In this document: positions 1 through 16,024 of the stretch, one piece after another
Layout of the letters: each line of letters begins with the position of its first letter
Position numbering within the stretch: position 1 is the stretch's first letter
Assembly: GCA_963726455.1 (NCBI GenBank)
Contig: CAVSCK010000004.1
Location: 1,792,001-1,856,000, forward strand
DNA: 64,000 nucleotides
Reading direction: 5' to 3'
Source: an uncultured bacterium
Lineage (GTDB): Bacteria > Zixibacteria > MSB-5A5 > CAIYYT01
Translations under genes and position numbers: made by a program
Notes under the pieces: model-generated
Databases searched by the model: none
Told to the model about the DNA's origin: nothing
Seen by the model: only the letters and a program-made list of their open reading frames with translations

Positions 1-839
1 TTCCGCCGATCGTCGATGATCCATATTATTTCGGCCAGATCGCGGCGGCAAACGCCTTGTCCGATATCTACGCCATGGGAGGCAAACCGCTGACGGCATT
101 GAATATTGTTGCTTTCCCATCAAGCTCAATGCCGGGGGAAATTCTGGCCCGCATACTTAGAGGTGGCGCCGACAAGATCAAGGAGGCCGGTGTTGTCATC
201 GTCGGCGGCCATTCGATCAAGGATAAAGAGTTGAAGTACGGCGTGGCAGCCACCGGAATTATCGATATCGACAAGATCGTGAGAAACGTCGGCGCGCAGG
301 CCGGCGACCGCTTGTATCTAACTAAACCATTGGGGACGGGCATAATCACTACTGCCCTAAAACATGATGCCGCAGATCCGGCTGATGTCAGCGCGGCTAC
401 AGAATCAATGACACGCCTGAACGACAAAGCGTCCGAGCTCATGGTTAAATACTGTGCGCATGCGGCAACGGACATTACCGGTTACGGGATACTCGGCCAC
501 GCGTACGAGATGGCAAGCGGCTCCCGGGTTACATTCAGTTTGACGTTCGATAAATTGCCCCTGCTTCCCAACGTGCTCCAATACGCAGAGGCGGGGCATC
601 TTACAGGAGGCGCTTCAGCAAATCGCGAGTATCTGGAAGACAAGACAATGATTTCCAAAGAGCTGTCTGGTCCGCAAGTTGATCTTCTGTTCGATGCTCA
701 AACCTCGGGTGGCCTGCTGATCGCGTTGCCGAAGGCAAGTGGTGACCTGCTGATGCAGGAGGCCATGTCTCTTGGCTTGTCAGTCTGGGAAATCGGCTAT
801 GTCGCTCCACAGGGAGCGTTCGCGATTGAAGTCGTTTAG
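1..839 (+). CDS. selD: Selenide, water dikinase (selenophosphate synthetase), 5'-truncated by window edge
   Basis: Frame open from position 3: PPIVDDPYYFGQIAAANALSDIYAMGG, GGHS, LTKPLGTG, TDITGYGILGH and DAQTSGGLL are SelD motifs. Confidence 0.95.
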   Translation, partial: PPIVDDPYYFGQIAAANALSDIYAMGGKPLTALNIVAFPSSSMPGEILARILRGGADKIKEAGVVIVGGHSIKDKELKYGVAATGIIDIDKIVRNVGAQAGDRLYLTKPLGTGIITTALKHDAADPADVSAATESMTRLNDKASELMVKYCAHAATDITGYGILGHAYEMASGSRVTFSLTFDKLPLLPNVLQYAEAGHLTGGASANREYLEDKTMISKELSGPQVDLLFDAQTSGGLLIALPKASGDLLMQEAMSLGLSVWEIGYVAPQGAFAIEVV

Positions 840-860: not shown

Positions 861-2348
861 TCACTCGCCAAATACCAGGGCTTGAAACTTGTGAATCACG
901 GCATCCGGGTTCTTGTATGCGTCGCTCGGCAACCCCGCCTTCTCACATGTTTGCTCCAGAAACTGCGTGCGATTCCAGCCATAGTCCGTCGCCACCTGAG
1001 GCAGCAACAGGCCCCGATTGTTTCCGAGAGAAATCATGAGGCCATCGCGACCGACTTGGATGTCATCCAGCGACTCTACCTGCACCAGCGGCGTCAGAAC
1101 CGAAATCTCAAGCTTTAGTTTCGGCACTTCAGAAGCGACGACCGGTACGAAACGAGGGTCCGAGACAGCCGCTTTAACTGCACAATCGGAGACCGTCTTG
1201 TAAAGCGGCTCGACTGCTATCGTGTAGCCGATGCAGCCGCGTAGTTGCCCATTCTCGTTCAGAGTGACAAACGCAGCGCCCGGTGCCTTGAGTCTTTCCG
1301 ACACGTCGAAGTCAGGCACTGTTCCTTTGGCCAAGTAGCTCTCAATCGACCTGCGGGCAATTTCCAGGAGCATCTTCTTGTCGCCCGCCGACAGCGCGGT
1401 CGATTGCTCCTCAGGTGTCTTTTCAATCTGTCCCTGTTTCTCGGGATCAGTCTTCTTCGTAGGAGACGACGACTTGTAGATCGCGGCTGCAACATATCCG
1501 ACCACTGTGGATTTGTCTCCGGTGATGTCACCGGAATCGCCATACCGCAATATCTTCACTTTGTCGGCGCCCATCGCCTTGGCGGCTTTCAGCACGGCAA
1601 GAACGGGGCCACCGCCACACATTTCCACCTGCCCCGTGCTCAGATATTGCTGAAGCTTCGCTATTTTGAATTTGTCCAGGCAGTCCATGCCCAGCGAATC
1701 CATTTTGTAGCCCTCTTTCGCCGGGCGATAATGTTGCCAATCCGAAGATGCGATCATAACTGAATGATTATCCAGCTTCAGGGATGCCAGAGCTTTCGCG
1801 GTGAGATCAATTTCCATTGCGCTCTGCGTTCCCATAACCAGCGGCACAATACGGAAATCCTTCAGTACCGTCTGCAAGAACGGAACCTGCACCTCCAGCG
1901 AATGCTCGCGCTCATGCGGTTGAGATGCAACTGCGAATAGTTCGTTGAATGCGAGAACCTTGTTGCAGAGAGAGTCGTCGCACGCAACGTTTCCCAATGG
2001 CGTTTTCCATATGATGCCCGGTCCATAGACCGATACGCCCTGGTATCGAACGTAATGCGATGGTCCACAGAGAATGACCTTCTTAATGCCGGAATCTTGC
2101 AGGAGCTTGTATGAATATGCGGCCACCGGACCTGAGTACGGATAGCCCGCGTGCGGAACGACCAGCGCGATAAGCCGTCCTTCGATGGCCGGCTCGCTGA
2201 CCTTGCCTAGAAACGACTCGACCGCTCCTCTCAATTCCGCGCTATCTGCCGGATAGAATTGGCCTGCCACCGCCGGCTGCCTTATTGTGGCGCTTTGTGA
2301 AACGGCAACGGCGAATATCAACGTGCAGAGTATCACGAATCTTTTCAT
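861..2348 (-). CDS. AmmeMemoRadiSam protein B (MEMO1-like) fused to protein A (AMMECR1-like), with N-terminal signal peptide
   Basis: ATG at 2348 after GGAG. MKRFVILCTLIFAVAVSQSA is signal-like. MEMO motifs RQPAVAGQFYP, PHAGYPYSG, GPSH, EHSLEVQVPFL; AMMECR1 motifs LRGCIG, GLLLPQVA. Confidence 0.9.
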   Translation of the reverse strand: MKRFVILCTLIFAVAVSQSATIRQPAVAGQFYPADSAELRGAVESFLGKVSEPAIEGRLIALVVPHAGYPYSGPVAAYSYKLLQDSGIKKVILCGPSHYVRYQGVSVYGPGIIWKTPLGNVACDDSLCNKVLAFNELFAVASQPHEREHSLEVQVPFLQTVLKDFRIVPLVMGTQSAMEIDLTAKALASLKLDNHSVMIASSDWQHYRPAKEGYKMDSLGMDCLDKFKIAKLQQYLSTGQVEMCGGGPVLAVLKAAKAMGADKVKILRYGDSGDITGDKSTVVGYVAAAIYKSSSPTKKTDPEKQGQIEKTPEEQSTALSAGDKKMLLEIARRSIESYLAKGTVPDFDVSERLKAPGAAFVTLNENGQLRGCIGYTIAVEPLYKTVSDCAVKAAVSDPRFVPVVASEVPKLKLEISVLTPLVQVESLDDIQVGRDGLMISLGNNRGLLLPQVATDYGWNRTQFLEQTCEKAGLPSDAYKNPDAVIHKFQALVFGE

Positions 2349-2432
2349 TGGACTCCTCCGGACTGATTCAGGCCCAAAGTGGTGCGGGCAAAAACCGTAC
2401 CCCTTCCGCCAGTAAGGGTGTATATTCAGTAT

Positions 2433-3353
2433 ATGAGCCGGGTCGTTGTGGTCAAGTACATTGGCGACCAGCGAAATCGCCCTCTTTCTCAATCGGATTA
2501 CGAAATTCTTCTCAATTCCGCCTTCCTGACGCTTTCTGGTAACGGCGATTTGCAGGCCGCCATTCGAAAGTATCTGCCCGACGGTGTAGTTGGTATGAAG
2601 CCGAACTGCCTGGCGCACAAATGGAATGCGACGCCGGTGCCTCTTATCGACGCTCTCTCGAATCTGTTGACATCGACCGGTTTGCGCGACAAAGACATTG
2701 TCGTCTGGGAGCGCAGCAACCGTGAATTATCTGCCTCCGACTACAAACTAAATGCGACCTCGACCGGTCGGCGCTGCTTCGGCACTGATGCCACCATTGC
2801 TGGCTATAGCAGCGATTTCTATTCGTTTGGCGAGGTCAACTCGTTGGTTACGCGCATCTTGACTGAAATCGTCGACGTCAACATCAATCTGCCCGTATTG
2901 AAAGACCACTCCGTCGCGGGTTTGTCGGGCGGCATGAAGAATATGTACGGCGCTATCAACAACCCTAACAAGTACCACGCCGACAACTGCAATCCGTTCT
3001 GTGCCCATGTCAATCTCTTGGAGCCGATTCGTACGAAGAACCGGCTGACCATTATTGATGCCGTGCGCGTCCAGTACAATGGCGGACCCGGCTTTGTGGA
3101 AGACTATATCGCCTACTTCGGCGGAATCGTCGTAAGCGACGACCCGGTTGCCGCCGATCGAGTGGGTCTCGAAATAATCGAGCATTTTCGTGCGGTTAAC
3201 GGCTTGCCGACTCTCGATAGGGTCGAGCGTCCCGTGAAATACCTGGCGACGGCGGAGAAACTCGGCCTGGGGACTGCTGATATGAAGAAGATTGATTTGC
3301 AGGTTCTGTCTGTCGACAAAAGCGGTCGACATAACTCGGAGACACTATTCTAA
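2433..3353 (+). CDS. DUF362 domain-containing protein
   Basis: VGMKPN, INLPVLKDHSVAGLSGGMKNMYG, DPVAADRVG, YLATAEKLGLG are typical of DUF362; start may be 2379 or 2433. Confidence 0.8.
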   Translation: MSRVVVVKYIGDQRNRPLSQSDYEILLNSAFLTLSGNGDLQAAIRKYLPDGVVGMKPNCLAHKWNATPVPLIDALSNLLTSTGLRDKDIVVWERSNRELSASDYKLNATSTGRRCFGTDATIAGYSSDFYSFGEVNSLVTRILTEIVDVNINLPVLKDHSVAGLSGGMKNMYGAINNPNKYHADNCNPFCAHVNLLEPIRTKNRLTIIDAVRVQYNGGPGFVEDYIAYFGGIVVSDDPVAADRVGLEIIEHFRAVNGLPTLDRVERPVKYLATAEKLGLGTADMKKIDLQVLSVDKSGRHNSETLF

Positions 3354-4492
3354 TGAGACGGCGCGCTTTCCTTCAATGTGTCGGTTGCGGCGCCGCTGCT
3401 GTTGCAGCGACACAGACAGGTTTATTCCCACCGGTTTTCAATACACTGCAAAATGCTTATGTTTTGGGCGAGCCGAGCGATCTTTCCTCCCAGGAAGCGC
3501 GTTTCTACAAGAAGCTGCCGGGCGGCGGAATCGAATGCGGAATTTGTCCCCGGCATTGTCGCGTCACCGATCTCGAACGCGGATATTGCGGCTCACGTGA
3601 AAACCGAGGCGACATCTATCACACGTTAGTCTATGGCAAACCGTGCTCGCTGAACGTCGATCCGATTGAAAAGAAACCGTTCTTCCACTTCTATCCAGGC
3701 ACTACGGCGTTATCGCTGGCGACCGCCGGCTGCAACGTCAACTGCAAATTCTGCCAGAATTGGGAGATCTCTCAATCGCGCCCCGAGCAGACCCAGAACA
3801 TTGATCTTCCGCCTGCGTCGGCAGTCGAAATGGCTGTTCAACGCAAAATCCCCAACATCGCCTACACCTATTCTGAACCGACAATCTTCTACGAATACAT
3901 GTCGGATATTGCCGCACTTGGACACAAGAACGGCGTCAGATCAGTGATGGTTTCGGGCGGCTATATCGAAGAGGAACCGCTTCTCCAGTTGCTCCCGCAC
4001 CTGGATGCAATCAAGGTTGACCTCAAAGGAATTCGCGAGGAATACTACAAGACGGTCGTCAACGGCGAACTCAAGCCGGTACTTGATCGGCTGATGCAGA
4101 TCAGAAAGTCCGGCGTCTGGCTAGAAATTGTGACACTGATAGTACCGACGCTTAATGATACTGAGGCCGAATTTCGCGACCTGAGTCGCTGGATTGCGAC
4201 GAATCTCGGCGTCGATGTGCCGCTTCACTTCTCGCAGTTCTATCCTCAGTACCTCTTGAGGAACCTGCCGCCGACACCGCCAAAGACTCTGGAGACTGCG
4301 CTGGATATCGCGAAGGCCGAGGGACTGCAATATGTCTACCTTGGCAATCTTCCCGGTCATCCCGCCGAATCAACTTATTGTCCGAAGTGCGGCGCAACCT
4401 TGATCGAGCGCAAGGGTTTCCGCATTTTGCAGTCCAACCTGACCGGCAATCAATGTTCAGCATGCCGGCAAATCATTCCCGGTCGTTTCTAA
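3353..4492 (+). CDS. AmmeMemoRadiSam radical SAM enzyme with Tat-like leader
   Basis: GCNVNCKFCQNWEISQ (CxxxCxxC), N-terminal CGICPRHC, DPIEKKPFFHF, C-terminal CPKCG...CSAC; N-terminus MRRRAFLQ followed by a hydrophobic stretch. Confidence 0.92.
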   Translation: MRRRAFLQCVGCGAAAVAATQTGLFPPVFNTLQNAYVLGEPSDLSSQEARFYKKLPGGGIECGICPRHCRVTDLERGYCGSRENRGDIYHTLVYGKPCSLNVDPIEKKPFFHFYPGTTALSLATAGCNVNCKFCQNWEISQSRPEQTQNIDLPPASAVEMAVQRKIPNIAYTYSEPTIFYEYMSDIAALGHKNGVRSVMVSGGYIEEEPLLQLLPHLDAIKVDLKGIREEYYKTVVNGELKPVLDRLMQIRKSGVWLEIVTLIVPTLNDTEAEFRDLSRWIATNLGVDVPLHFSQFYPQYLLRNLPPTPPKTLETALDIAKAEGLQYVYLGNLPGHPAESTYCPKCGATLIERKGFRILQSNLTGNQCSACRQIIPGRF

Positions 4493-6634
4493 ATGACTCG
4501 CCAGGGGCTTCTACTCGGTTTCTTCTCGACTGCTGCACAAGTGTTATTGTTGCGCGAGCTCGAATCGTCGCTCAACGGCAGTGAACTATTCATCGGCACG
4601 GCTTTGTTTGGCTGGCTGATAGCCGTCGCGGCAGGCGCTTATCTGGGCGGTAAGACAAAAAGAACTGTCACACCAACTATACTGTTCGGCGCCGGAGCTC
4701 TGCTATTGCCTCTGCTGATCATCGTTGCGCGATTATCTCCTCTCTATGTGACACACGTAACCGGAGAAACAATCCCTTTCAGTACAGCGGCTCTGATTTC
4801 GATTCTTGCGACGGTCCCCGCGGGCATCCTGTCGGGCTGGCTGTTCACAACCATAGTGCGCGGACAATCGCCGGAGTCAAACACGATCACAAAGCTCTAT
4901 TGTATCGAAGGAGTCGGCGCCGGAATCGCTGGCGTGCTGATCACGCTGCTGGCGGGAACGTGGTTCTCGACGCTAGCAATAGCGATCATCGTCGCAGTAA
5001 TTACCGTGGCTGCTTTGCTATTTGCGCCGTCGGCAAAAAGAGCAGTGCGATTCTTTGTCGTGATTGGCGCGATACTGATGATCGTTCTCGCCGTCACGAG
5101 TATTCCCATTCTCGACCGCGCTATTGACGGCATCAAGTATTCGTCGTATCGAGTACAACAGACTTTCGATACGCCATACAGTCACGAAGCCATTCTCACG
5201 CGCGACAACAGCACTGTCCTGTTAACCGACAATACGGTTGAGGCGACCAGCCCGGACCTGTTGACGGATGAGAATCTCTTGCTGCCGCCGTTCGCTTATA
5301 GTCCGGGCGCCACGAAAGTTCTCGTCTTCGGACGTACCGAATTCGGCATCGAGCAACTTGCCAGCAGACTCGGCAACGTATCGATCACTTCCGTCGATCC
5401 GCGCCAAATGCGTGGAACAAAAGCGACGAACACTTCTCAGATAGTCCGAGTCACTGACGACCCTTTGGCATTTGTATCGCGGACCGGCAAGCACCAGTCA
5501 TATGACATTATCATTCTGCCGGCGGGCGATCTTGGTAGTTATAGAAACAGTCGCCTGATATCGAAGCACTTTCTCGGCGCTGCCAGGCGTCTGATTGCGC
5601 CCAAGGGAATCATTTTCATCCCGACCCGTTACGACTCCGACCGCTATATCAGCGCTCGCGAGCAAACAATCCTGTCGACGATCTACGCCACTCTAAGGGA
5701 GACATTCCCGAACGTGCAATCCTGGCCGGGAAACATGACTTTGTTCTTCGCGTCTTATGAATTGCCGCTTGATCTGCCGTACGATTCCCTGATTTCGAAT
5801 CTGTCGCGACTTTCGTACATTCCCCAATTCATTGGTGAGAATTATCTCAAGGACAGACTTGATAGTCTCAAGGTAGATCGGTTAGTCTTATCCTTCGGCA
5901 GTTCTTCGCATGCCAACAGTCTCAACGTTCCGCTATTGACTCTTCAGGAGACGCTCTATCGATCAGAACTGAGCAAGTTGGATGCGAAGATATCCGCAGC
6001 TTTATTGGATAGTTCCTGGTGGCTGGCAATACTGCCCATCTTGATTGTGACTCTGTTCTTCGTTACCGTGATTGGTCGCAAGGGACACGCATCTTACGGT
6101 CTGTTCCTCTATTTCTGCGCCGGCGTAGTTTCACTCACATTGGAGATGATTGCGTTCTACGTGTACCAGTCAACTGCGGGTTCTTTGTATTCCGAATTGG
6201 CGATCCTTATCGGAATCTTTATGTTCGGACTATCTGCGGGAACCTACCTGACTCTCAAATCCGAATTTGAACGTGTCGACTTGAGTGCGATCATAATGCT
6301 TCTGACGGCGACTACCGTGTATACTCTCGCCTACAAGACCGTTCCGTCATCGATGCTTCTAATATTCCACATTCTCTTCCTGCTCACAATAGCCCTCGGA
6401 ACCGGGAGTCTGTTCGCTGCGGCAACACGACGATATTACGGTAGACGCCCGGGGCCCAACCAAGGCGCCGGTTACGCGCTCGAACTCACAGGATCATCTC
6501 TCGGCGCTGTCCTGACAACAACCGTCCTTCTGCCCGCGATCGGGCTGCACTGGCTTCTTGTAGGCGTGATTCTGCTGCTAGCTATCGCAGCGGTTGGCTC
6601 GATCTTGACGGCGAGAGGCTCCCAGGCGAATTAG
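4493..6634 (+). CDS. Multi-pass membrane protein with central spermidine-synthase-like domain
   Basis: N- and C-terminal TM bundles (QVLLLRE...GSEL; YQSTAGSLYSEL) flank a soluble domain with TPYS, TKVLVFG and YDIII. Confidence 0.75.
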   Translation: MTRQGLLLGFFSTAAQVLLLRELESSLNGSELFIGTALFGWLIAVAAGAYLGGKTKRTVTPTILFGAGALLLPLLIIVARLSPLYVTHVTGETIPFSTAALISILATVPAGILSGWLFTTIVRGQSPESNTITKLYCIEGVGAGIAGVLITLLAGTWFSTLAIAIIVAVITVAALLFAPSAKRAVRFFVVIGAILMIVLAVTSIPILDRAIDGIKYSSYRVQQTFDTPYSHEAILTRDNSTVLLTDNTVEATSPDLLTDENLLLPPFAYSPGATKVLVFGRTEFGIEQLASRLGNVSITSVDPRQMRGTKATNTSQIVRVTDDPLAFVSRTGKHQSYDIIILPAGDLGSYRNSRLISKHFLGAARRLIAPKGIIFIPTRYDSDRYISAREQTILSTIYATLRETFPNVQSWPGNMTLFFASYELPLDLPYDSLISNLSRLSYIPQFIGENYLKDRLDSLKVDRLVLSFGSSSHANSLNVPLLTLQETLYRSELSKLDAKISAALLDSSWWLAILPILIVTLFFVTVIGRKGHASYGLFLYFCAGVVSLTLEMIAFYVYQSTAGSLYSELAILIGIFMFGLSAGTYLTLKSEFERVDLSAIIMLLTATTVYTLAYKTVPSSMLLIFHILFLLTIALGTGSLFAAATRRYYGRRPGPNQGAGYALELTGSSLGAVLTTTVLLPAIGLHWLLVGVILLLAIAAVGSILTARGSQAN

Positions 6635-6671
6635 CCTACGTACATCAAGACTTTTGAGAGTAAATCCGTCG

Positions 6672-8360
6672 TCACGAGATTCGGTTAGGTGGGGGAGTTA
6701 ACTTGCGATTCCGTAGCAGCAGTTGATTCCGATTCGACCGCGACTCGCCGACCGAGGTGATGTAGATCGCCGCATCGCCGGTAACCGGGCACGCATACTC
6801 GCAGGCGCCACAACCGGTACAGAGTTCGGGATCGACCGACGGGCGCTTGACTTTCACTTCTTCCTTGCGACGATTGAATGCCGTTTCTTCCGCGAAGTAA
6901 ATCGCTTTCGGCGAAGTTGGGCACCACTCTTCACACACAATGCAGGGCGTAGCCATCGCCCAGGGCAGGCAACGGCCGCGATCAATGAACGCCGTGCCGA
7001 TGCGGTTTGGCGGCACAGTCTCGCTGCCGACCTTGCGGGTAAGTGTCAATTCGGAAATCGCTCCCGTCGGACATACTTGTCCGCAGAGAGTGCAGGTCGG
7101 TTCACAATAGCCAATCCTGGCAATTAATATCGGTGACCACAGTCCTTCAGCCCCGGCTTGCAGCAGAGTCGGATGAAGTGCATTGTTCGGGCAAACCCGC
7201 ATGCATTGACCGCATCGTATACAGCGGGAAATGAACTGGTTCTCCGGAAGCGAACCCGGCGGGCGGATCAAGCGAGGATTGGAATTCACTTCGAAGGCAT
7301 CGCCCGATCGCAGCAGCGGCACAAGTGCAACTCCGCTGGCAAGGGATGCCAGCACCATGCGGCGCGAGGCGTCAACCTTCTGCGTGCTCGCCGGACTGGC
7401 AGCCGTGGCAACTCGCTCTGGGTAGAACTTGAAACTGAGAGATGACGCAGGGCATTCCGCCTGACAGTTGAGACAGAGATGGCACTCCGGCTGCCGCCAG
7501 ACTGATCCCACATCAGGCCCGTCTGCTCCCTGACAATGCAGCAGGCACAGGTTGCAGTGATTGCAGGTTGCTTCGTCTTTCGTAAGTCCGAAGATTGTCC
7601 AGCGTGAAAAGACGCCGAGTAATGCCCCGAGCGGACAAATGCCTCGACACCAGAAACGTGTGATCAGGCGATTCAAGACAAGTACTGCCAGGAAGAAGAC
7701 AGCGATGAGAATGATTCCGTGAAAGTGCGCCTGGCGATACGGCAGCAGGACGGCGGCAAAAGCATCATAGACCGATTGAGCCCCTGACGCGATCGCCGGC
7801 GAACCCAGACCTTTCACTGCACCGAGTATGCCTAGCGCCGCGGTGTGCAGGGTCGGTAATATCGCTGTCCCGAGAGAGCGTGCCAGTAATGCCAGAGGAT
7901 CCAGTAACCCTATTTGCAGACTGCCGAACAAAGCCGCGGCCAGGAACAGGAACAGTAGATAGTATTTGATACGCTGATACTTGCCGTAACGGTTTCTCTT
8001 AAGTCGACGCGCATTGTCGCCGGTACCTTTGACTGCACGCACTTCCGATACCCAGTGATTAAGTGATCCCAGTGGACATACCCAGCCGCAGAAGAAACGC
8101 CCTAGCACAATTGTGGGAATCAGAATGACCAACGACCAGAGCAGCCCCTTATATAGTGTACCGGCGGCAAGCAGTGTGGACAACGCGGCCAACGGATCAA
8201 ATTGAAGCGCAATAGAAACCGGATACGGGAGTTGAATCTCGGTGGCGTTGGCGGGCAAAAAATGAACTTCGAAAGTTGTCTTGAGTATGAGCCAGAAGAA
8301 GACTAGAAAGAATACAACCTGCGAGATACGGCGCAAATTGCGAACTGCCTTAATGGTCAT
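6672..8360 (-). CDS. Membrane 4Fe-4S polyferredoxin (NapH/MauN-like fused to NapG/MauM-like)
   Basis: GRFFCGWVCPLG, RFWCRGICPLG, CNHCNLC, CIRCGQCMRVCP, CTLCGQVCP, CTGCGACEYACP; internal SRRMVL; ATG 8360 overlaps the reconstructed upstream stop. Confidence 0.88.
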   Translation of the reverse strand: MTIKAVRNLRRISQVVFFLVFFWLILKTTFEVHFLPANATEIQLPYPVSIALQFDPLAALSTLLAAGTLYKGLLWSLVILIPTIVLGRFFCGWVCPLGSLNHWVSEVRAVKGTGDNARRLKRNRYGKYQRIKYYLLFLFLAAALFGSLQIGLLDPLALLARSLGTAILPTLHTAALGILGAVKGLGSPAIASGAQSVYDAFAAVLLPYRQAHFHGIILIAVFFLAVLVLNRLITRFWCRGICPLGALLGVFSRWTIFGLTKDEATCNHCNLCLLHCQGADGPDVGSVWRQPECHLCLNCQAECPASSLSFKFYPERVATAASPASTQKVDASRRMVLASLASGVALVPLLRSGDAFEVNSNPRLIRPPGSLPENQFISRCIRCGQCMRVCPNNALHPTLLQAGAEGLWSPILIARIGYCEPTCTLCGQVCPTGAISELTLTRKVGSETVPPNRIGTAFIDRGRCLPWAMATPCIVCEEWCPTSPKAIYFAEETAFNRRKEEVKVKRPSVDPELCTGCGACEYACPVTGDAAIYITSVGESRSNRNQLLLRNRKLTPPPNRIS

Positions 8361-9312
8361 CCGGTAATCTCTTTGAAGCCCGCGGCACGATAGTCGACCT
8401 TTCCCAATCCCAGCTTCTCTGCGAGAACTATATGGGAAACGTCCTCCCCTTTCAAACCGAGAAATTCGAAGCCCGCGAATCGGCTGCAACTTGATCGGTG
8501 GCGCAGATCACTGAATCTTCAATCGCCACGTCGTCGAGTGATCCGCCGGTCGGGCCGCCGCGCAGCAATACCCGGGTGCAATCAACGACTGTCAACGTCG
8601 GTTTGCCGAGTCCCGCCACGTCGACAATTGCCTGGTCAATCTTTTGATGGAATTGGCTTCGCCGGCCGCCCAGAATGCCGTAGAAATTCTTCATGGCGCC
8701 GGTATAGCCGGTCAGCGAATGATGCTTGGCAATCGGCATGTTTATCAGCCGATCGGTCTGCACGAAGTACTTCAGCACCGGCCAGACGTCGACGGCCTGC
8801 CCACCCACTACGGTGCGAAGATAGTCCTCTTCGAGCGGCAGGATGACTTTGGCGCCCGCCTTTTCCGCTTCCGCGCGAATTCCTGAGCGCAGGAAACAAC
8901 GGCGCGGCTCGTTGCACGATACATCCGTGACAATCACCTGCGCTGCACCGGCCGCCAGGCACAGGCGAACCATCTCTCCTACCAATATCGGATTGGTATC
9001 TGCGGCCTGTTCCGGCGTGCGATCCCAGCCGATGTTCGGCTTGATCGTCACCTTGTCCCCCTTGCGAATGAATCTCTTGATTCCGCCGATACCATCCAAT
9101 GAGGAGTGCAGCGCCGCAATCGGGTCTGAATTTTTCGTCAGTATTACCTGCGGCAACTGCTTGTCAGCGGGAACTGTGAAGTCGGACGTTTTTAAAATGA
9201 TAGGTTCGCTGCCGGTGACCTGTCGATTATGAAACAGCATTCCGACGGCAGTCGTAGAAGCGGCAAACGCCAGTGTCTTTCCGGTGGTTTTGAGAAATTC
9301 GCGTCGTTCCAT
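8357..9312 (-). CDS. DUF362 domain protein with Tat signal; frameshift near 8468 (reconstructed end 8357)
   Basis: MERREFLKTTG Tat motif; KPNIGWDR, INMPIAKHHSLTG. Adding one base at ...GCTTCG^AATTTCTC gives EFLGLKGEDVSHIVLAEKLGLGKVDY...ITG* ending in an ATGA overlap with the next gene. Confidence 0.85.
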
Positions 9313-9444
9313 GGTGTGGTATCCTCTCGTATAAATAAAGCTGACAGGGAACGAATTTGCAAGTTCTTAAGGAAGACCGGTACGATTTTACACATAAGTA
9401 TTGGCCAAAGCGCAAGAGGCGACTAGTTTGGCCGGGAGATCGAA

Positions 9445-10356
9445 ATGAATGACCGCGTGACATATCGAACAATCTTGTACCTCGTCAATTTCAGTCTTTC
9501 TTTGATGACGGCCCTGGCATTTCTCCTTACGGAAAACGTGCTGGCTCTCACCATGCCTGACGACAATTTCGCAAGTGGCTGGACAAAACCGGTAAAGCCG
9601 CTGACCTATACGCGGGAAAGTCTCTCGGACTATGTAAATGGTGATGCTGAATTATTCAACGAGCTTGGATTCCGGCAACTGGAAGTTCAGCAATACAAGA
9701 ATGGGAGCTCAGAAATTGATCTGGAATTATACGAACTGAACGATCCCAACGGCGCAATGGGAATCTACTTGCTCAAGTGCGGCAAGGAAACGCCTTCCTC
9801 CGAGATTACTTCCCGGAATTCAGTCAATCGTTCGCAACTGGTCGCCGTCAAGGCAAACTTCTTTATCCAAGTCCTGAACTATACCGACAACGATAACGTC
9901 CAGCCGACCATGATCAAACTTGCGCAACAAGCCTTGTCATTGGTGGCAAACAAATCTGATTCAACCGTTCTGGGCCTGCTACCGAGGCAGCAACTTCAAG
10001 CGGGTTCGGAACACGTCTTTTGCGGCCCTTTATCGTTGCAGGCGGCGTTTCGGTTAGGCAAAGGCGATTTCCTGCAGTTGCAGAACAAGACTTTCGGGGC
10101 GTCTGCCAAATATTCGGAGGGACAAAGTGGAAGCTATTCTTACTGTGTCGTCACGTACTCCGATCCCACCGCTGCTTCCGCGGCGTTCGCACACTTGCAG
10201 AAATCTCTTGATCCGGGAATTCAATTATCCGACAAGACGGCCGGTAATTTCACTTTCAAGGACCGCCTGGCAAAATTCGGGACTGCTATACTAAAAGACA
10301 GCACGATTGAGCTAAAGCTGAATCTTGCGCACAAGCCGGTAAGTTCTTCGAAGTAG
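9445..10356 (+). CDS. Exported protein, DUF6599-like
   Basis: N-terminal hydrophobic signal; LSDYVNGDAELFNELGF and LELYEL...GAMGIY motifs. Confidence 0.65.
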   Translation: MNDRVTYRTILYLVNFSLSLMTALAFLLTENVLALTMPDDNFASGWTKPVKPLTYTRESLSDYVNGDAELFNELGFRQLEVQQYKNGSSEIDLELYELNDPNGAMGIYLLKCGKETPSSEITSRNSVNRSQLVAVKANFFIQVLNYTDNDNVQPTMIKLAQQALSLVANKSDSTVLGLLPRQQLQAGSEHVFCGPLSLQAAFRLGKGDFLQLQNKTFGASAKYSEGQSGSYSYCVVTYSDPTAASAAFAHLQKSLDPGIQLSDKTAGNFTFKDRLAKFGTAILKDSTIELKLNLAHKPVSSSK

Positions 10357-10396: not shown

Positions 10397-10855
10397 TTAG
10401 AGAAACTTTATGTCTATACGTTTGGCCTTGGGCAGCATGTTCTTGACATGACCTGCCTGCAGCAGCCCGCATCCCAACGGGAAATTCAAGTGCTTGACCA
10501 ATACATAACCATCGGTCGTTTCGCCGATTTCCTCCGGCGTTGCATCGAGATCGAGCCCCTTGATATATCGCGCCGCCTGCTCACGTCCAAGTTGCAGCGC
10601 ATTACGTTTGATGTTGCCGCCAAACGCCTGCAAGAGATTGGTGGAGGGTTTGACTGTATTGCCAATTCGTGCGATCAATAGGCCGGCCGCATCGGGGTTC
10701 AGCACCGAATCAATCTCCTTCGGACCGAGAATGATGCGTCCATTGGCACTGGCGTAGAACTCGAAATCATCGAACAACGTCGCTGGCAGATCAAACCGCC
10801 GCTCAAGATATTCCAACGTCATGACCTTATATTCTTCAGGGCACCGTTCGATCAC
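10397..10855 (-). CDS. RsmF/NOL1-NOP2 C-terminal PUA-like domain protein
   Basis: KPSTNLLQAFG, GYVLVKHLNFPLGCG...KNMLPK; GTG start overlaps the upstream stop. Confidence 0.75.
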   Translation of the reverse strand: MIERCPEEYKVMTLEYLERRFDLPATLFDDFEFYASANGRIILGPKEIDSVLNPDAAGLLIARIGNTVKPSTNLLQAFGGNIKRNALQLGREQAARYIKGLDLDATPEEIGETTDGYVLVKHLNFPLGCGLLQAGHVKNMLPKAKRIDIKFL

Positions 10856-11766
10856 TTTCTGATCCTCGCCAAATAGAAGCCACCGGTGTCATTGTGATGT
10901 GGCAGCACCCTTGCCGTCTTGCGCACTTCGTCATCAAATTTGTAGTCTTGCCAGGACGTGATTCCCGGCATTAGGGCAAAATTCGGAATCTCGACCTGCT
11001 CCATTTTGGCAGGGCGTTCAGTCAACAGATAATTGACGACCGCTTCATTCTCTTCCGGAGCGATCGTGCAGGTGGAATAGACCAAGGTACCCCCTTCGGC
11101 CAGCAGGTCGAAGGCCATGAGGATAAGCTGCTTCTGACGGTAAGCGCTGGGGCCGATACGCTTGGGCGACCAGGCCTGCATCTGTCGCGGATTCTTCCGA
11201 AAAATCCCTTCCGACGTGCAAGGGGCATCCAGCAAAACGACATCAAATTGGGACTGCGGAAACGATCGCATATCGTAGTTTGTCACGACGGCATTGAGTG
11301 CGCCACTTCTCTCCAGGTTGAATTTCAATGGCCGAATACGTTCGTATTCCACGTCGTTGGCAACTATCGTGCCGCGATTGCACATTAGCGCTGCGAGCTG
11401 AGTGGTCTTTGAGCCCGGAGCCGCGCATGCATCCAAGACGCTCTTCGCCAATCGCAACTCCTCTCTGACAAGAAGCGGGGGCAACATGGAGGTCAACTCT
11501 TGTATGTAGATGGCGCCCAGGAAATGCTCGAGAGTCGAGCCGATGGCCGGGTTGTCGGAAACGAACGCATCCTCGTACCACGCTGTCTGTTCAATGCCGA
11601 TGCCGTAATCACGAAAGCGCGGAACGATCTGTTCTGCCGAACCTCTGAGGGTGTTTATGCGAAAGGCCTTCGGTAACGGCGTGACCATGCACTCAAAGAA
11701 TGCCTGGGCATCATCTACCAATGGTTCGTAACGTTCGGCAAATGCTCTGGGGACTTCAGGTTTCAT
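10852..11766 (-). CDS. RsmB/NOP family RNA m5C methyltransferase (RsmF-like catalytic domain)
   Basis: YIQELTSM, VLDACAAPGSKTTQ, FDVVLLDAPCTSEG, LVYSTCT..PEENE, GGFYLARIRK. Confidence 0.92.
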   Translation of the reverse strand: MKPEVPRAFAERYEPLVDDAQAFFECMVTPLPKAFRINTLRGSAEQIVPRFRDYGIGIEQTAWYEDAFVSDNPAIGSTLEHFLGAIYIQELTSMLPPLLVREELRLAKSVLDACAAPGSKTTQLAALMCNRGTIVANDVEYERIRPLKFNLERSGALNAVVTNYDMRSFPQSQFDVVLLDAPCTSEGIFRKNPRQMQAWSPKRIGPSAYRQKQLILMAFDLLAEGGTLVYSTCTIAPEENEAVVNYLLTERPAKMEQVEIPNFALMPGITSWQDYKFDDEVRKTARVLPHHNDTGGFYLARIRK

Positions 11767-11947
11767 CGCGCGCTGAGTATAGCCACCATGCCGACCGGTG
11801 TCAACCGGCAATGTCCTGCGGCACAAACTCTTTTGCAGGCAACGAGTCTTCATCCGGTCGCTGCCTACTTGACAACCGCGCAATCATGCCATACAATGTC
11901 GCCTGCATTTGGGACAGGTGCAGTGGCACCATAACCAGTGAAAGAGC

Positions 11948-13435: not shown

Positions 13436-16024
13436 ATGAGACAAAGACAATTTTTGCCAGTAGTGTTTATTTTTGCTTTCTTCCTGGCGGCGACCGCATT
13501 TAGCCAGGAAACCAAAGACAATCAATTCTGCCTCGGATGTCATGCCGACCAGTCGGTCCAAGCCGAGGACGGTCGAGCGCTCTTTGTCGACACGACGGTG
13601 CTCCACTCCTCGGTGCATAAAAGCCCCACTTGCATCGATTGCCACGACCAGCCCGGCGCCAATTTTGACGAAGCGCCGCACTTCAAAACCTACAAGCCGG
13701 TCGATTGCCAAAGCTGTCACCAGCTCGAGGGGGCGGCCTGGATGGAGTACTTCTTCAAGATGTTGAAGAACAAGGGCACCAAGGAGATTCCCGATTGCAA
13801 GGAATGTCACGGCACGCACAATGCTCAAAAGGAACTGAGCATGAAACTAGTGTGCGACCGCTGCCATCAGGAAATTGCCAACAAGTACCGCCAGAGTTAT
13901 CACTTCCAGAAATATCAGGAAGACACGCGCAAATACCCGATCTGTACGACCTGCCATGACGCACACTTCAAGTCAAAGAAAGAGGTGATGTCGGACAAGG
14001 AATACAAGCAGGAAATCGTAGACATCTGTTCCAAATGCCACCAGAGAGACATTGAAACTTACATTCACTCGCGCCACTTCCACGAGATGGAAGCCGGTAA
14101 CCCAAAGGCGCCGGTCTGCACCAGTTGCCACGAGAACCATGATATTCGCAAACCGTCCGATCCGCTGTCGCGCGTGAACACCGGCAACATTTCGAACGTG
14201 TGCAACGGTTGTCATCCGGGGCACAAAGAGAGCTTGCATCGGGCAGCGGGTGTCGACCCGACTACCATTTCCTGTGCCACCTGCCACACCGGGCATCAGA
14301 CGGACATGGCTTCGATCAATAATTCCATCTTCAAGGAAGGTGGCATTGTCAATCGCTGCAACATCTGCCATGAGACCGAGCGCCACACCAAAGAAAATCT
14401 GGCACATGGCGAGATCATGCTCATTCAGCCGGCCGGAGGCGAGGCCAACTGCACCAAGTGCCACGTCTATCATTGGAACCTGCCGGGTCTGGACAATGAA
14501 GCTGTTAAACACCAGCGCACTGAGTGCATCAACTGCCATGCCCAGGAAAACCGTGAATACAAGCATTCAATCCACGGCCGAGCCCGGGCACAGGGAATCA
14601 TGGAAGCCCCGACCTGTACTACCTGCCACGGCGAAAAGGACATCAAGAGGGTGAAAGAGCAGTTCACTGCGGAAGGCATTATCAAGCTCTGCTCGTCTTG
14701 TCATGGCGACAAGGACAAGATGCTGAAATTCCAGATAAATCCATACGTGGTGGAGGGCTACAAGGAGACTTATCACGGCAAGTTGTTCGAGACAGGTACG
14801 ATGGAAGTCAAGTTTGCCGTCTGTACCAACTGCCACGGCGTTCACACCATTCAACCGCCGAACGATCCTGAATCCAGCGTCAATCGCGACCACATCGTTC
14901 AGACCTGTAAACAATGCCATCCGCGCGCCAACGATCGATTCGTGTCGTACCTCGTTCACCCCATCAAACCGAGCAAGTCTGAACTCGAGGAAGGTGACCG
15001 GCTGGCACAGGGCGATACTTCAATCGCGGCTCTCAAACGTGATTCACTTCATCGCGGTGAAACAAAGGAAGTCGCCGGTTCATGGCAAAGCTTCAATTCG
15101 ATTGTCACCACGCTGATGACCATCTTGCTGGTGGGCACGCTCGGCGTGTTCGGCTTCCACACAGTACTCTGGTTCCAGAAGGGAATCCGGCCGCGTGTTC
15201 GCCCGGAAGTTATCTATTACAGCCGCATCGACGGTTTCCACAGGTTCCTGCATATCCTGATCAATATCAGTTTCCTGACCCTGGCCTTTACAGGATTACC
15301 GCAGTCCTATGCGCATACGGAGCTGGCAAAATGGCTATTCAAGAATGTCATCTCACTTCACACAGCGCAATTGCTGCACTATATCGCGGCGATCATCACC
15401 GGCTTCTATTTTGTTGCGCATATTGTATTCCTTGGATTCAAGATCAAGAAGATCGGTTTCAAAGCGCTGATGACCGGCCCGAACACCATGGTGATGCGCA
15501 TGAAGGACATTCACGATCTCATTGCTCACGTGAAGTGGTTCTTCGGCAAAGGACCGGCGCCCCAGTTCGACCGTTGGACGTATTGGGAAAAGTTCGACTA
15601 TTTCGCAGTTTTCTGGGGAGTCTTCGTGATCGGACTCTCCGGCCTGTTGCGCTGGAAGGAAGAGCTTTTCGGGAATTTCCTCGGCGGTGGAATCATCAGT
15701 CTTGCTGACACTATCCACAGGGAAGAAGCTCTGTTGGCCACTGCCTTCATCTTTATCGTGCACTTTTTCAACACGCACTTGCGTGCCAGCAAATTCCCGA
15801 TGGATGTCTCCGTTTACACCGGCAGAATTGATGAGCACGAATTTAAGGAAGAACGTCCGCTCGAATACAAGCGCCTTGCCATCGAGGGTGGACTTGAACA
15901 ACGTAAGAGAAGACCCCTGGGCCTCGTCCCGTCGATCATTGCTTACATCTGGGGCACCGCGGCATTACTCACGGGTTTCTTCCTGCTCTTCTTGATTATA
16001 CTCGGCCACTTTACAGCAAGGTAG
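13436..16024 (+). CDS. Multiheme cytochrome c (17 CxxCH) fused to cytochrome b domain, CbcL-like
   Basis: Signal peptide; 17 CxxCH counted by hand; membrane domain RFLH...LAFTGLP, QLLHY, YWEKFDYFAVFWG, TIHREEALLA..FIVHFFNTH. Confidence 0.88.
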   Translation: MRQRQFLPVVFIFAFFLAATAFSQETKDNQFCLGCHADQSVQAEDGRALFVDTTVLHSSVHKSPTCIDCHDQPGANFDEAPHFKTYKPVDCQSCHQLEGAAWMEYFFKMLKNKGTKEIPDCKECHGTHNAQKELSMKLVCDRCHQEIANKYRQSYHFQKYQEDTRKYPICTTCHDAHFKSKKEVMSDKEYKQEIVDICSKCHQRDIETYIHSRHFHEMEAGNPKAPVCTSCHENHDIRKPSDPLSRVNTGNISNVCNGCHPGHKESLHRAAGVDPTTISCATCHTGHQTDMASINNSIFKEGGIVNRCNICHETERHTKENLAHGEIMLIQPAGGEANCTKCHVYHWNLPGLDNEAVKHQRTECINCHAQENREYKHSIHGRARAQGIMEAPTCTTCHGEKDIKRVKEQFTAEGIIKLCSSCHGDKDKMLKFQINPYVVEGYKETYHGKLFETGTMEVKFAVCTNCHGVHTIQPPNDPESSVNRDHIVQTCKQCHPRANDRFVSYLVHPIKPSKSELEEGDRLAQGDTSIAALKRDSLHRGETKEVAGSWQSFNSIVTTLMTILLVGTLGVFGFHTVLWFQKGIRPRVRPEVIYYSRIDGFHRFLHILINISFLTLAFTGLPQSYAHTELAKWLFKNVISLHTAQLLHYIAAIITGFYFVAHIVFLGFKIKKIGFKALMTGPNTMVMRMKDIHDLIAHVKWFFGKGPAPQFDRWTYWEKFDYFAVFWGVFVIGLSGLLRWKEELFGNFLGGGIISLADTIHREEALLATAFIFIVHFFNTHLRASKFPMDVSVYTGRIDEHEFKEERPLEYKRLAIEGGLEQRKRRPLGLVPSIIAYIWGTAALLTGFFLLFLIILGHFTAR

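Follow-up and report, generated by a model that had tools for sequence, protein, structure and literature searches.

A radical SAM system with conserved export signals that probably works outside the cytoplasm

Whether a radical S-adenosylmethionine (SAM) enzyme can work outside the cytoplasm is a question raised by a locus of an uncultured Zixibacteria bacterium (GTDB lineage Bacteria; Zixibacteria; MSB-5A5; CAIYYT01), located in the 64,000-nucleotide stretch of DNA analyzed here (the window; positions 1,792,001 to 1,856,000 of the forward strand of contig CAVSCK010000004.1, assembly GCA_963726455.1). The dependence of radical SAM enzymes on SAM, on a low-potential reductant and on the assembly of iron-sulfur clusters is the reason why they are regarded as strictly cytoplasmic. 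At positions 861 to 10,356 of the window, however, a radical SAM enzyme of the AmmeMemoRadiSam type (hereafter rSAM) carries an apparent leader for twin-arginine translocation (Tat), and is found near a Memo-AMMECR1 fusion protein with an apparent signal for the general secretory (Sec) pathway, 2 DUF362 proteins (DUF362a and DUF362b), a membrane protein with a spermidine-synthase-like part, a NapH-NapG polyferredoxin and a DUF6599 protein. A preliminary description of this locus had assigned these 7 gene identities, all of which are borne out by Pfam, NCBIfam and structure models, and had joined the proteins into a single exported system. Our analysis indicates that the rSAM system, given its conserved export signals, probably works outside the cytoplasm, and that the locus consists of 2 modules rather than one: module A, with DUF362a, the rSAM, the membrane protein (MFS/SpeE) and Memo-AMMECR1, and module B, with DUF362b, the polyferredoxin and DUF6599.

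The rSAM gene (3353..4492, forward strand) encodes 379 residues that match TIGR04337 above its cut-off of 220, with 366.8 bits. The match to this model begins at residue 49, and the protein therefore has 48 extra N-terminal residues. All 76 aligned rSAM relatives match TIGR04337 as well, the cysteines of the CX3CX2C motif are invariant among them, and the rSAM retains the cysteine motifs that the family has at both termini. The N-terminus contains a leader of approximately 36 residues (3353..3460, forward strand). To characterize this leader, we collected the 120 best rSAM homologs, which are 67% to 100% identical and nearly all 379 residues long, and scored leader motifs, AxA-like sites and core hydrophobicity with our own pattern scripts. 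The twin-arginine consensus xRRxF[LI][RK] was found in 118 of the 120, the remaining 2 being shorter proteins that start inside the leader, while an AxA-like site was found some 35 residues in for 116 of the 120. The hydrophobicity of the core is moderate, with a median of 1.74; Tat signal cores are usually less hydrophobic than Sec signal cores. The genome itself encodes TatC (PF00902, 212.9 bits). At the nucleotide level, 16 pairwise comparisons between close loci gave 226, 154 and 378 leader codon differences at codon positions 1, 2 and 3, respectively, and 196 of the 468 changed leader codons were synonymous. Because of this third-position excess and the synonymous changes, the leader can be considered translated and under selection. 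The rSAM leader is thus translated and conserved and, judged from its sequence, appears to be a Tat-type export signal, so that the enzyme is probably exported; the twin-arginine start given in the preliminary description holds in this respect. As a separate observation, the hydrophobic core of the leader contains a conserved C-x-G-C-G motif (residues 8–14, positions 3374–3394), and a cysteine directly follows RRxF[LI][RK] in 99 of the 118 homologs, which is unusual for a signal peptide.

The Memo-AMMECR1 fusion, in which AmmeMemoRadiSam proteins B and A form one chain, is encoded divergently from the rSAM gene at a distance of 1 kb (861..2348, reverse strand). Its open reading frame (ORF; 861–2618, reverse strand) matches the Pfam families Memo with 229 bits and AMMECR1 with 174 bits, and the NCBIfam models TIGR04336 with 268.2 bits (cut-off 26) and TIGR04335 with 179.4 bits (cut-off 99), so that the Pfam and NCBIfam matches are all over cut-off. 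The likely start is the ATG at 2348, which is preceded by a Shine-Dalgarno-like GGAGGAG and gives a protein of 495 residues; the reading from the first start of this ORF was rejected in favor of an internal ATG, as were those of the polyferredoxin ORF (6672–8489) and of the DUF362a ORF (2379–3353, first GTG). From this ATG, the protein begins with a putative Sec-type signal peptide of 23 residues (2280..2348, reverse strand), composed of a basic start, a strongly hydrophobic core and small residues ahead of the Memo domain. All orthologous fusions have a hydrophobic leader at this place: the maximum hydrophobicity over 10 residues has a median of 2.93, and is at least 1.8 in all 31 fusions evaluated, in agreement with the Sec-like signal that had been proposed for this protein. 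The same genome holds a second set of these genes without signals, in which Memo, AMMECR1 and an rSAM copy are encoded by unlinked genes (G000:C4:157873-159247, C3:521616-522554 and C4:928240-928830). This rSAM copy is spread over 3 frames, owing to frameshifts or assembly errors, and seems to run on into an extra C-terminal part.

We collected a first set of 80 rSAM loci from species-representative genomes of Zixibacteria, Acidobacteriota (including Aminicenantes), Calditrichia and others, and searched these loci with the proteins of the window. Many of these loci are on short contigs, so that the neighbor counts are lower bounds, and related genomes are not independent samples. In 77 of the 80 loci, the gene immediately preceding that of the rSAM encodes DUF362a; MFS/SpeE is present in 68 and the Memo-AMMECR1 fusion in 49, while the polyferredoxin is present in 25 and DUF6599 in 13 (42 when an iterated profile is used). 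All-against-all clustering of the 3374 ORFs from the 80 loci and the window returned no partners beyond the 7 families, the next real cluster covering 12 loci. A second set of 80 loci, from many phyla, was collected with a profile of distant leader-bearing rSAMs, and the rSAM N-termini were classified by script into 17 with twin arginine and hydrophobic core, 19 with a hydrophobic stretch only, 42 without leader and 2 unclear cases. The Sec-like leaders without twin arginine belong to Omnitrophota and some other phyla (L096, L097, L099, L105, L108, L144 and others). MFS/SpeE is a neighbor in 8 of the 17 twin-arginine loci, 8 of the 19 hydrophobic-only loci and 2 of the 42 leaderless loci. Combined, this amounts to 16 of 36 leader-bearing versus 2 of 42 leaderless loci (Fisher p 3.3e-5, a value that ignores kinship between genomes). 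In the loci for which the Memo start could be found, the Memo-AMMECR1 fusion bears a signal in 7 of 7 with a leader-bearing rSAM versus 1 of 11 with a leaderless one. One of the 2 leaderless exceptions with MFS/SpeE is a frameshift that masks a hydrophobic leader, and the single exception for the Memo signal is this same locus. In other words, the predicted export signals are not only conserved, but also tend to be present or absent together in the partners.

DUF362a (2433..3353, forward strand, in ORF 2379–3353) matches PF04015 with 65.5 bits (cut-off 24). The protein has no leader in this genome, which corrects the preliminary description. It is likewise leaderless in other Zixibacteria and in Aminicenantes, whereas orthologs in Acidobacteriota (Acidobacteriaceae and Bryobacteraceae), Calditrichia and Eisenbacteria have twin-arginine leaders. 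DUF362a is translationally coupled to the rSAM gene: the rSAM start codon, ATG 3353, overlaps the DUF362a stop codon, and the gaps between the 2 genes in the related loci are mostly between −11 and +30 nucleotides. A structure model of DUF362a (pLDDT 96) has malate and lactate racemases as its best matches among solved structures (E 1.9e-7 to 2e-4), while the sequence itself gave no match to solved structures at E values up to 10. DUF362 and the N-terminal domain of LarA share Pfam clan CL0471, according to the part of the source on which we draw (PMC11770544). The likeness to the LarA superfamily thus consists of the shared clan and a model closest to LarA-type racemases, and the difference of the missing sequence match. 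The presence of LarC in the genome was considered as a link between DUF362 and the nickel-pincer cofactor, and was set aside as uninformative, because a LarA homolog is also encoded.

The complex predicted for DUF362a and the mature rSAM has a score of 0.69 (0.69, 0.63 and 0.77 in separate runs), versus 0.38 for the best control. Of 157 solved complexes, 116 attained the score mark used, versus 2 of 215 mismatched pairs; these counts serve as a rough guide only, since our own alignments were used. Contacts agreed by at least 84% between runs, and the partner has a pLDDT of at least 91. In the predicted interface, an invariant loop of DUF362a (residues 176–182), together with residues 217–221, is placed against rSAM residues 72–80, 130 and 141–146, which adjoin the CX3CX2C cluster loop and the N-terminal cysteine motif. 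The sequence of DUF362b differs at the position of this invariant loop. According to these models, DUF362a probably binds the rSAM. The suggestion that the rSAM serves the maturation of a DUF362 protein gains some support, in that the model sets the invariant loop at the cluster loop of the enzyme. A third DUF362 gene is found elsewhere in the genome (G000:C4:576900-577517, 84.9 bits, in an open frame of 371 residues).

The next gene on the forward strand encodes a membrane protein of 713 residues (4493..6634, forward strand), whose ATG starts at the base directly after the rSAM stop codon. No Pfam family matched it at an E value of 0.01 or better, and NCBIfam gave only weak matches to membrane spermidine synthases. 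A structure model based on 51 relatives (pLDDT 92, pTM 0.92) consists of 7 helices, a soluble domain at approximately residues 220–506, and another 7 helices. The soluble domain resembles aminopropyltransferases, with a Foldseek E value of 8e-9 (about 1e-8) and TM-scores on the target of 0.63 to 0.69. In a search independent of Foldseek, it aligned with 1uir_A over 283 residues (Z 25.5, rmsd 3.6). The top matches in this second search are transporters of the major facilitator superfamily (MFS), led by VMAT2 (Z 28.9, 330 residues aligned, rmsd 3.8), with VAChT, SotB, OCTN2, FLVCR2, NarK and many more at Z values of at least 20; the fold that they share leaves the substrate undefined. HHalign aligns the 2 membrane halves with each other in parallel register at 97.3% probability (E 2e-11), which marks them as homologous. 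The protein can therefore be described as having 6+6 transmembrane helices, the loop between the halves containing an additional hairpin that bears the soluble domain. In the 51 relatives, the sum of lysines and arginines is 16.3 on the predicted inner loops versus 2.2 on the outer loops, and because of this concentration on the inner loops we place the SpeE-fold domain in the periplasm. The protein is thus modeled as an MFS transporter with an outward-facing spermidine-synthase-fold domain (MFS/SpeE).

Compared with SpeE and other aminopropyltransferases, the soluble domain has the full SpeE fold, and differs in the absence of a Pfam match and in a degenerate glycine loop. The NCBIfam family NF037959, “fused MFS/spermidine synthase,” is matched with 19.3 bits, against a cut-off of 40; here, the domain interrupts the central loop and is predicted to face outward. 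The preliminary description had proposed that this membrane protein handles SAM or a product of it. A transporter with an outward domain of a fold that binds decarboxylated SAM fits this proposal, whereas the degenerate glycine loop weakens it for this copy. The loop is degenerate in the Zixibacteria relatives as well, while the copies of Acidobacteriota and Aminicenantes retain both the canonical glycine loop and the acidic motifs.

Downstream of MFS/SpeE lie the genes of module B. The polyferredoxin (6672..8360, reverse strand, 562 residues from the likely start, the ATG at 8360) is encoded in a longer ORF (6672–8489), in which residues 51–207 are NapH-like and residues 369–578 NapG-like, both matches being below the equivalog cut-offs. 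Between the NapH-like part, with its cytoplasmic cluster motifs, and the NapG-like part, 2 arginines at residues 333–334 are followed by a weakly hydrophobic stretch (motif and fifth transmembrane helix, residues 332–352, 7305..7367, reverse strand). The same layout has been described for the NapH-NapG polyferredoxin of the delta proteobacterium MLMS-1, which requires both Sec and Tat, has the twin arginine before its fifth transmembrane domain at 338–359 (versus twin arginine at 333–334 here), and has its NapG-like part put outside through Tat (Tooke et al. 2017, PMC5449189). The part of that paper on which we draw establishes the topology alone and names no gene partners, whereas here pairing with the gene of a Tat-leader DUF362 protein is nearly constant and with DUF6599 frequent. 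DUF362b (8452..9312, reverse strand) is a full-length DUF362 protein with a Tat-type leader (PF04015, 146.6 bits, cut-off 24), and its orthologs also bear twin-arginine leaders. The DUF6599 protein (9445..10356, forward strand; PF20244, 69.7 bits, cut-off 27) has a hydrophobic segment at residues 10–28, which may be a signal or an anchor, and a protein-atlas search with it returned only DUF6599 clusters. The leader of DUF362b and the possible N-terminal signal of DUF6599 agree with what had been described for the locus.

The assumption that all these proteins belong to one system does not hold, however. In a scan for the polyferredoxin, 80 loci were fetched, of which 74 contained a polyferredoxin ORF. 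A DUF362 gene lies within 300 nucleotides of the polyferredoxin gene in 61 of these 74 loci, and DUF6599 is present in 44, while MFS/SpeE is found in 21, the rSAM in 19 and Memo-AMMECR1 in 13. Because of these neighbor counts, we consider DUF362b, the polyferredoxin and DUF6599 to be a module of their own, separable from the rSAM genes from both sides (the rSAM in 19 of 74 polyferredoxin loci, the polyferredoxin in 25 of 80 rSAM loci). Module B occurs without the rSAM in about three-quarters of its loci, and is combined with the rSAM module in about a quarter; such combinations vary in gene order and are known at least from Zixibacteria and Acidobacteriota.

To estimate how widespread leader-bearing enzymes are, we searched 1.84 billion cluster representatives with the rSAM, which returned 7791 proteins at an E value of 0.001 or better. 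A tree was built with FastTree from 147 rSAM core rows, that is, representatives from the best 150 of the 7791 together with the window, 3 being dropped for short core coverage; the midpoint root is used for drawing only. All 33 rows with a Tat-type leader, including the window, fall within one group of 56 rows with a local support of 94. This group also includes plain hydrophobic N-termini, with leaderless forms elsewhere in the tree, and contains fusions to membrane redox parts (FMN_bind, NapH-like and DsbD_2) and to beta-propeller or carbohydrate-binding parts. Individual fusions of the rSAM to FMN_bind, NapH-like (Fer4_5) and DsbD_2 parts are P0141, P0148, P0151, P0132, P0149, P0167 and P0169; in P0167 and P0169, a single transmembrane segment, FMN_bind and the rSAM domain follow in series, with no transmembrane segment between the latter two. 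Triple fusions of Memo, AMMECR1 and rSAM exist in both domain orders (P0160, P0162, P0144, P0194 and P0195). Among these, P0160 begins with a signal-like segment, and P0144 with a transmembrane segment followed by positive charges.

With respect to known systems, the locus has in common with the canonical AmmeMemoRadiSam system (TIGR04335, TIGR04336 and TIGR04337) that all 3 models are matched over cut-off, that the genes are neighbors and that the cysteine motifs of the family are present. In contrast to the canonical members, which are leaderless, the rSAM of the window has a predicted Tat leader and Memo and AMMECR1 are fused behind a predicted Sec signal, with DUF362a and MFS/SpeE added as constant partners in the exported form. 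A second comparison is with pairs that are exported by hitch-hiking through Tat, such as the small and large subunits of hydrogenases and DmsA/DmsB, in which one partner carries the leader. Here, likewise, one partner has the leader, the genes are coupled and binding is predicted, and the carrier would be the radical SAM enzyme; unlike in those pairs, both DUF362a and the rSAM have leaders of their own in other phyla. Finally, the NCBIfam models that come next after TIGR04337 for the rSAM are those of pyruvate formate-lyase activase and other glycyl-radical activases, all scoring far below their cut-offs. The likeness lies in the conserved loop of a partner modeled at the cluster loop, but the rSAM is not a member of that group, no glycyl-radical enzyme is encoded nearby, and the partner has a LarA fold. 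In the literature, we found no functional study of the AmmeMemoRadiSam system beyond passing mentions (judged by title and abstract), and no exported radical SAM enzyme, description of this cluster or membrane SpeE-fold protein; the searches did not extend to subscription journals or supplements.

Taking these results together, the picture towards which we lean is that module A is a form of the AmmeMemoRadiSam system that works outside the cytoplasm, frequently accompanied by a redox module that faces the periplasm (B). Within this picture, a location of the proteins outside the cytoplasm is its most secure element, and one that we consider quite likely. The cluster-loaded pair of rSAM and DUF362a would fold in the cytoplasm before export through Tat, and DUF362a, having no leader here, would leave by hitch-hiking on the leader of the rSAM. 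Outside, the rSAM would act on or with the invariant loop of DUF362a, and with Memo-AMMECR1. The MFS/SpeE protein would bring out, hold or remove an adenosyl-sulfonium compound, and module B, where present, would pass electrons from the membrane to the periplasmic side. The chemistry is a far more tentative matter: SAM-dependent turnover in the periplasm, fed by MFS/SpeE, is a possibility that we consider less likely than not. The same caution applies when this explanation is extended to many diderm phyla, where a Tat-exported rSAM clade might be supplied with an MFS-fed adenosyl-sulfonium compound on the SpeE-fold domain, and might operate with iron-sulfur or flavin electron conduits in the membrane and with LarA-fold DUF362 and Memo-AMMECR1 partners. 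As conduits, the NapH-NapG polyferredoxin or the NosR-like and DsbD-like fusions would be candidates, again tentatively.

Several observations weigh against this explanation. To our knowledge, there is no periplasmic source of SAM or of low-potential reductant, and the degenerate glycine loop weakens the case for SAM handling by this copy of MFS/SpeE. The curated Tat-signal model TIGR01409 is the top match of the 50-residue N-terminus of the rSAM, but scores 15.3 bits, below its cut-off of 16.7; for DUF362b it is the second of 2 matches of the N-terminus, at 13.0 bits. The Pfam model TAT_signal (PF10518) gives 13.8 bits for DUF362b, against a cut-off of 22.7, and does not match the rSAM. A hydrophobic leader without twin arginine, as found in 19 of the 78 classified loci of the second set, is hard to reconcile with the export of an iron-sulfur enzyme. 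In the NosR-like fusions, a crude helix count would place the rSAM domain on the cytoplasmic side. Finally, 55 of the 80 rSAM loci of the first set have no polyferredoxin within 10 kb, and because of this absence module B cannot be regarded as an obligatory electron donor.

One rival view is that module B is a redox unit of its own, facing the periplasm, which is only a chance neighbor of the rSAM module here and shares no function with it. The composition of the 74 polyferredoxin loci (DUF362 in 61, DUF6599 in 44, the rSAM in 19) agrees with such independence, as do the rSAM loci that lack a polyferredoxin. Pure chance has more difficulty with the adjacency of the modules in about a quarter of loci, counted from either side, in different gene orders and in at least 2 phyla (Zixibacteria and Acidobacteriota), with the DUF362 paralog in each module, and with rSAM relatives that are fused to NapH-like and FMN_bind parts. 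We regard independence as a serious possibility, though not as the probable one. The main rival for module A itself is that the rSAM acts before export, modifying DUF362a or itself with the SAM and reductant of the cytoplasm, and afterwards serves only as the Tat carrier and iron-sulfur subunit of a periplasmic DUF362a enzyme, so that no radical SAM turnover would take place outside. This would remove the problem of SAM outside the cytoplasm, and suits the activase-like placement of DUF362a loop 176–182 at the rSAM cluster loop (130 and 141–146) in the model, the overlap of the 2 genes, and the lack of a leader on DUF362a here while its orthologs have one; module B likewise pairs a DUF362 paralog with an iron-sulfur protein. 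Action before export leaves unexplained, however, why an outward SpeE-fold MFS transporter is specifically linked to leader-bearing rSAMs, and why a leader on the rSAM always goes together with a Sec signal on Memo-AMMECR1. The invariance of the SAM-cluster cysteines in the exported clade does not discriminate here, since a role before export needs them too. On balance, we judge this rival to be unlikely.

The other 2 rivals concern the leaders. They could be uncleaved membrane anchors that keep the catalytic domains in the cytoplasm, near their membrane partners, as might be suspected from the plain hydrophobic N-termini without twin arginine in some relatives, from the positive charges after the hydrophobic segment of the fused relative P0144, and from the possibly cytoplasmic rSAM domain of the NosR-like fusions. 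By the positive-inside rule, though, a basic twin arginine before the hydrophobic core puts the body of the protein outside. In addition, the AxA-like site is conserved (116 of 120), the Memo-AMMECR1 leaders resemble classical cleaved Sec signals, and partner domains face outward, the SpeE-fold domain by prediction and the NapG-like domain as shown for its type in the part of PMC5449189 on which we draw; anchoring is, in our estimation, very unlikely. Still less credible, to the point of being negligible, is that the leaders are start-codon artefacts and the real proteins begin downstream. An in-frame TTG at residue 38 of the rSAM ORF would allow this, and the Memo-AMMECR1 and polyferredoxin ORFs do extend upstream of their likely starts. 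Yet the rSAM leader is conserved at the protein level in 118 of 120 homologs, its codon differences are in excess at third positions, the rSAM ATG overlaps the upstream stop codon, and GGAGGAG precedes the Memo-AMMECR1 start. Downstream starts or unconserved leaders, which the preliminary description had named as grounds for abandoning its proposal, are thus not what we find: the leaders are translated and conserved.

The remaining features of the window are of less consequence for the system. Eight genes occupy its first 10.4 kb, from the 3′ part of selD through DUF6599. The selD part (3–839, forward strand) is convergent with the Memo-AMMECR1 gene, with 21 bases between the stop codons (839–861). 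As a part of the system, selD was rejected, since it occurs in none of the 80 related rSAM loci (with RsmF/PUA neighbors in 1 of 80), and the guess that its position is coincidental was right. No genomic island is apparent from base composition, with a GC fraction of 0.49 to 0.585 across positions 1–14 kb. A scan for regulatory sites gave 13 promoter-like sites versus 6.0 ± 2.3 in shuffled sequences and 10 terminator-like sites versus 9.5. These results were left unused, because the scan does not cover promoters of this phylum. Beyond DUF6599, an RsmF/NOL1-type RNA methyltransferase and its PUA-like C-terminal domain are encoded in split ORFs with a 4-base overlap (10397–10855 and 10852–11883, both reverse strand), a split that recurs in the closest related locus (L008). 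Further downstream, an ORF of 862 residues (13436–16024, forward strand), seen in the ORF list alone, has many CxxCH heme-binding motifs early and several hydrophobic helices in its last third, and thus resembles a multiheme cytochrome fused to a membrane part.

If the explanation towards which we lean is true, a large and old clade of radical SAM enzymes built for export would break the rule that these enzymes are cytoplasmic, and SAM, or a compound related to it, would have to cross the membrane by a route not described so far. For the AmmeMemoRadiSam trio, to which bacterial relatives of human MEMO1 and AMMECR1 belong, the locus also offers a point of access, in the form of extra partners and a predicted interface that can be mutated. 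For the dual Sec/Tat polyferredoxin family, the pairing with a Tat-leader DUF362 protein and DUF6599 would be the first gene context.

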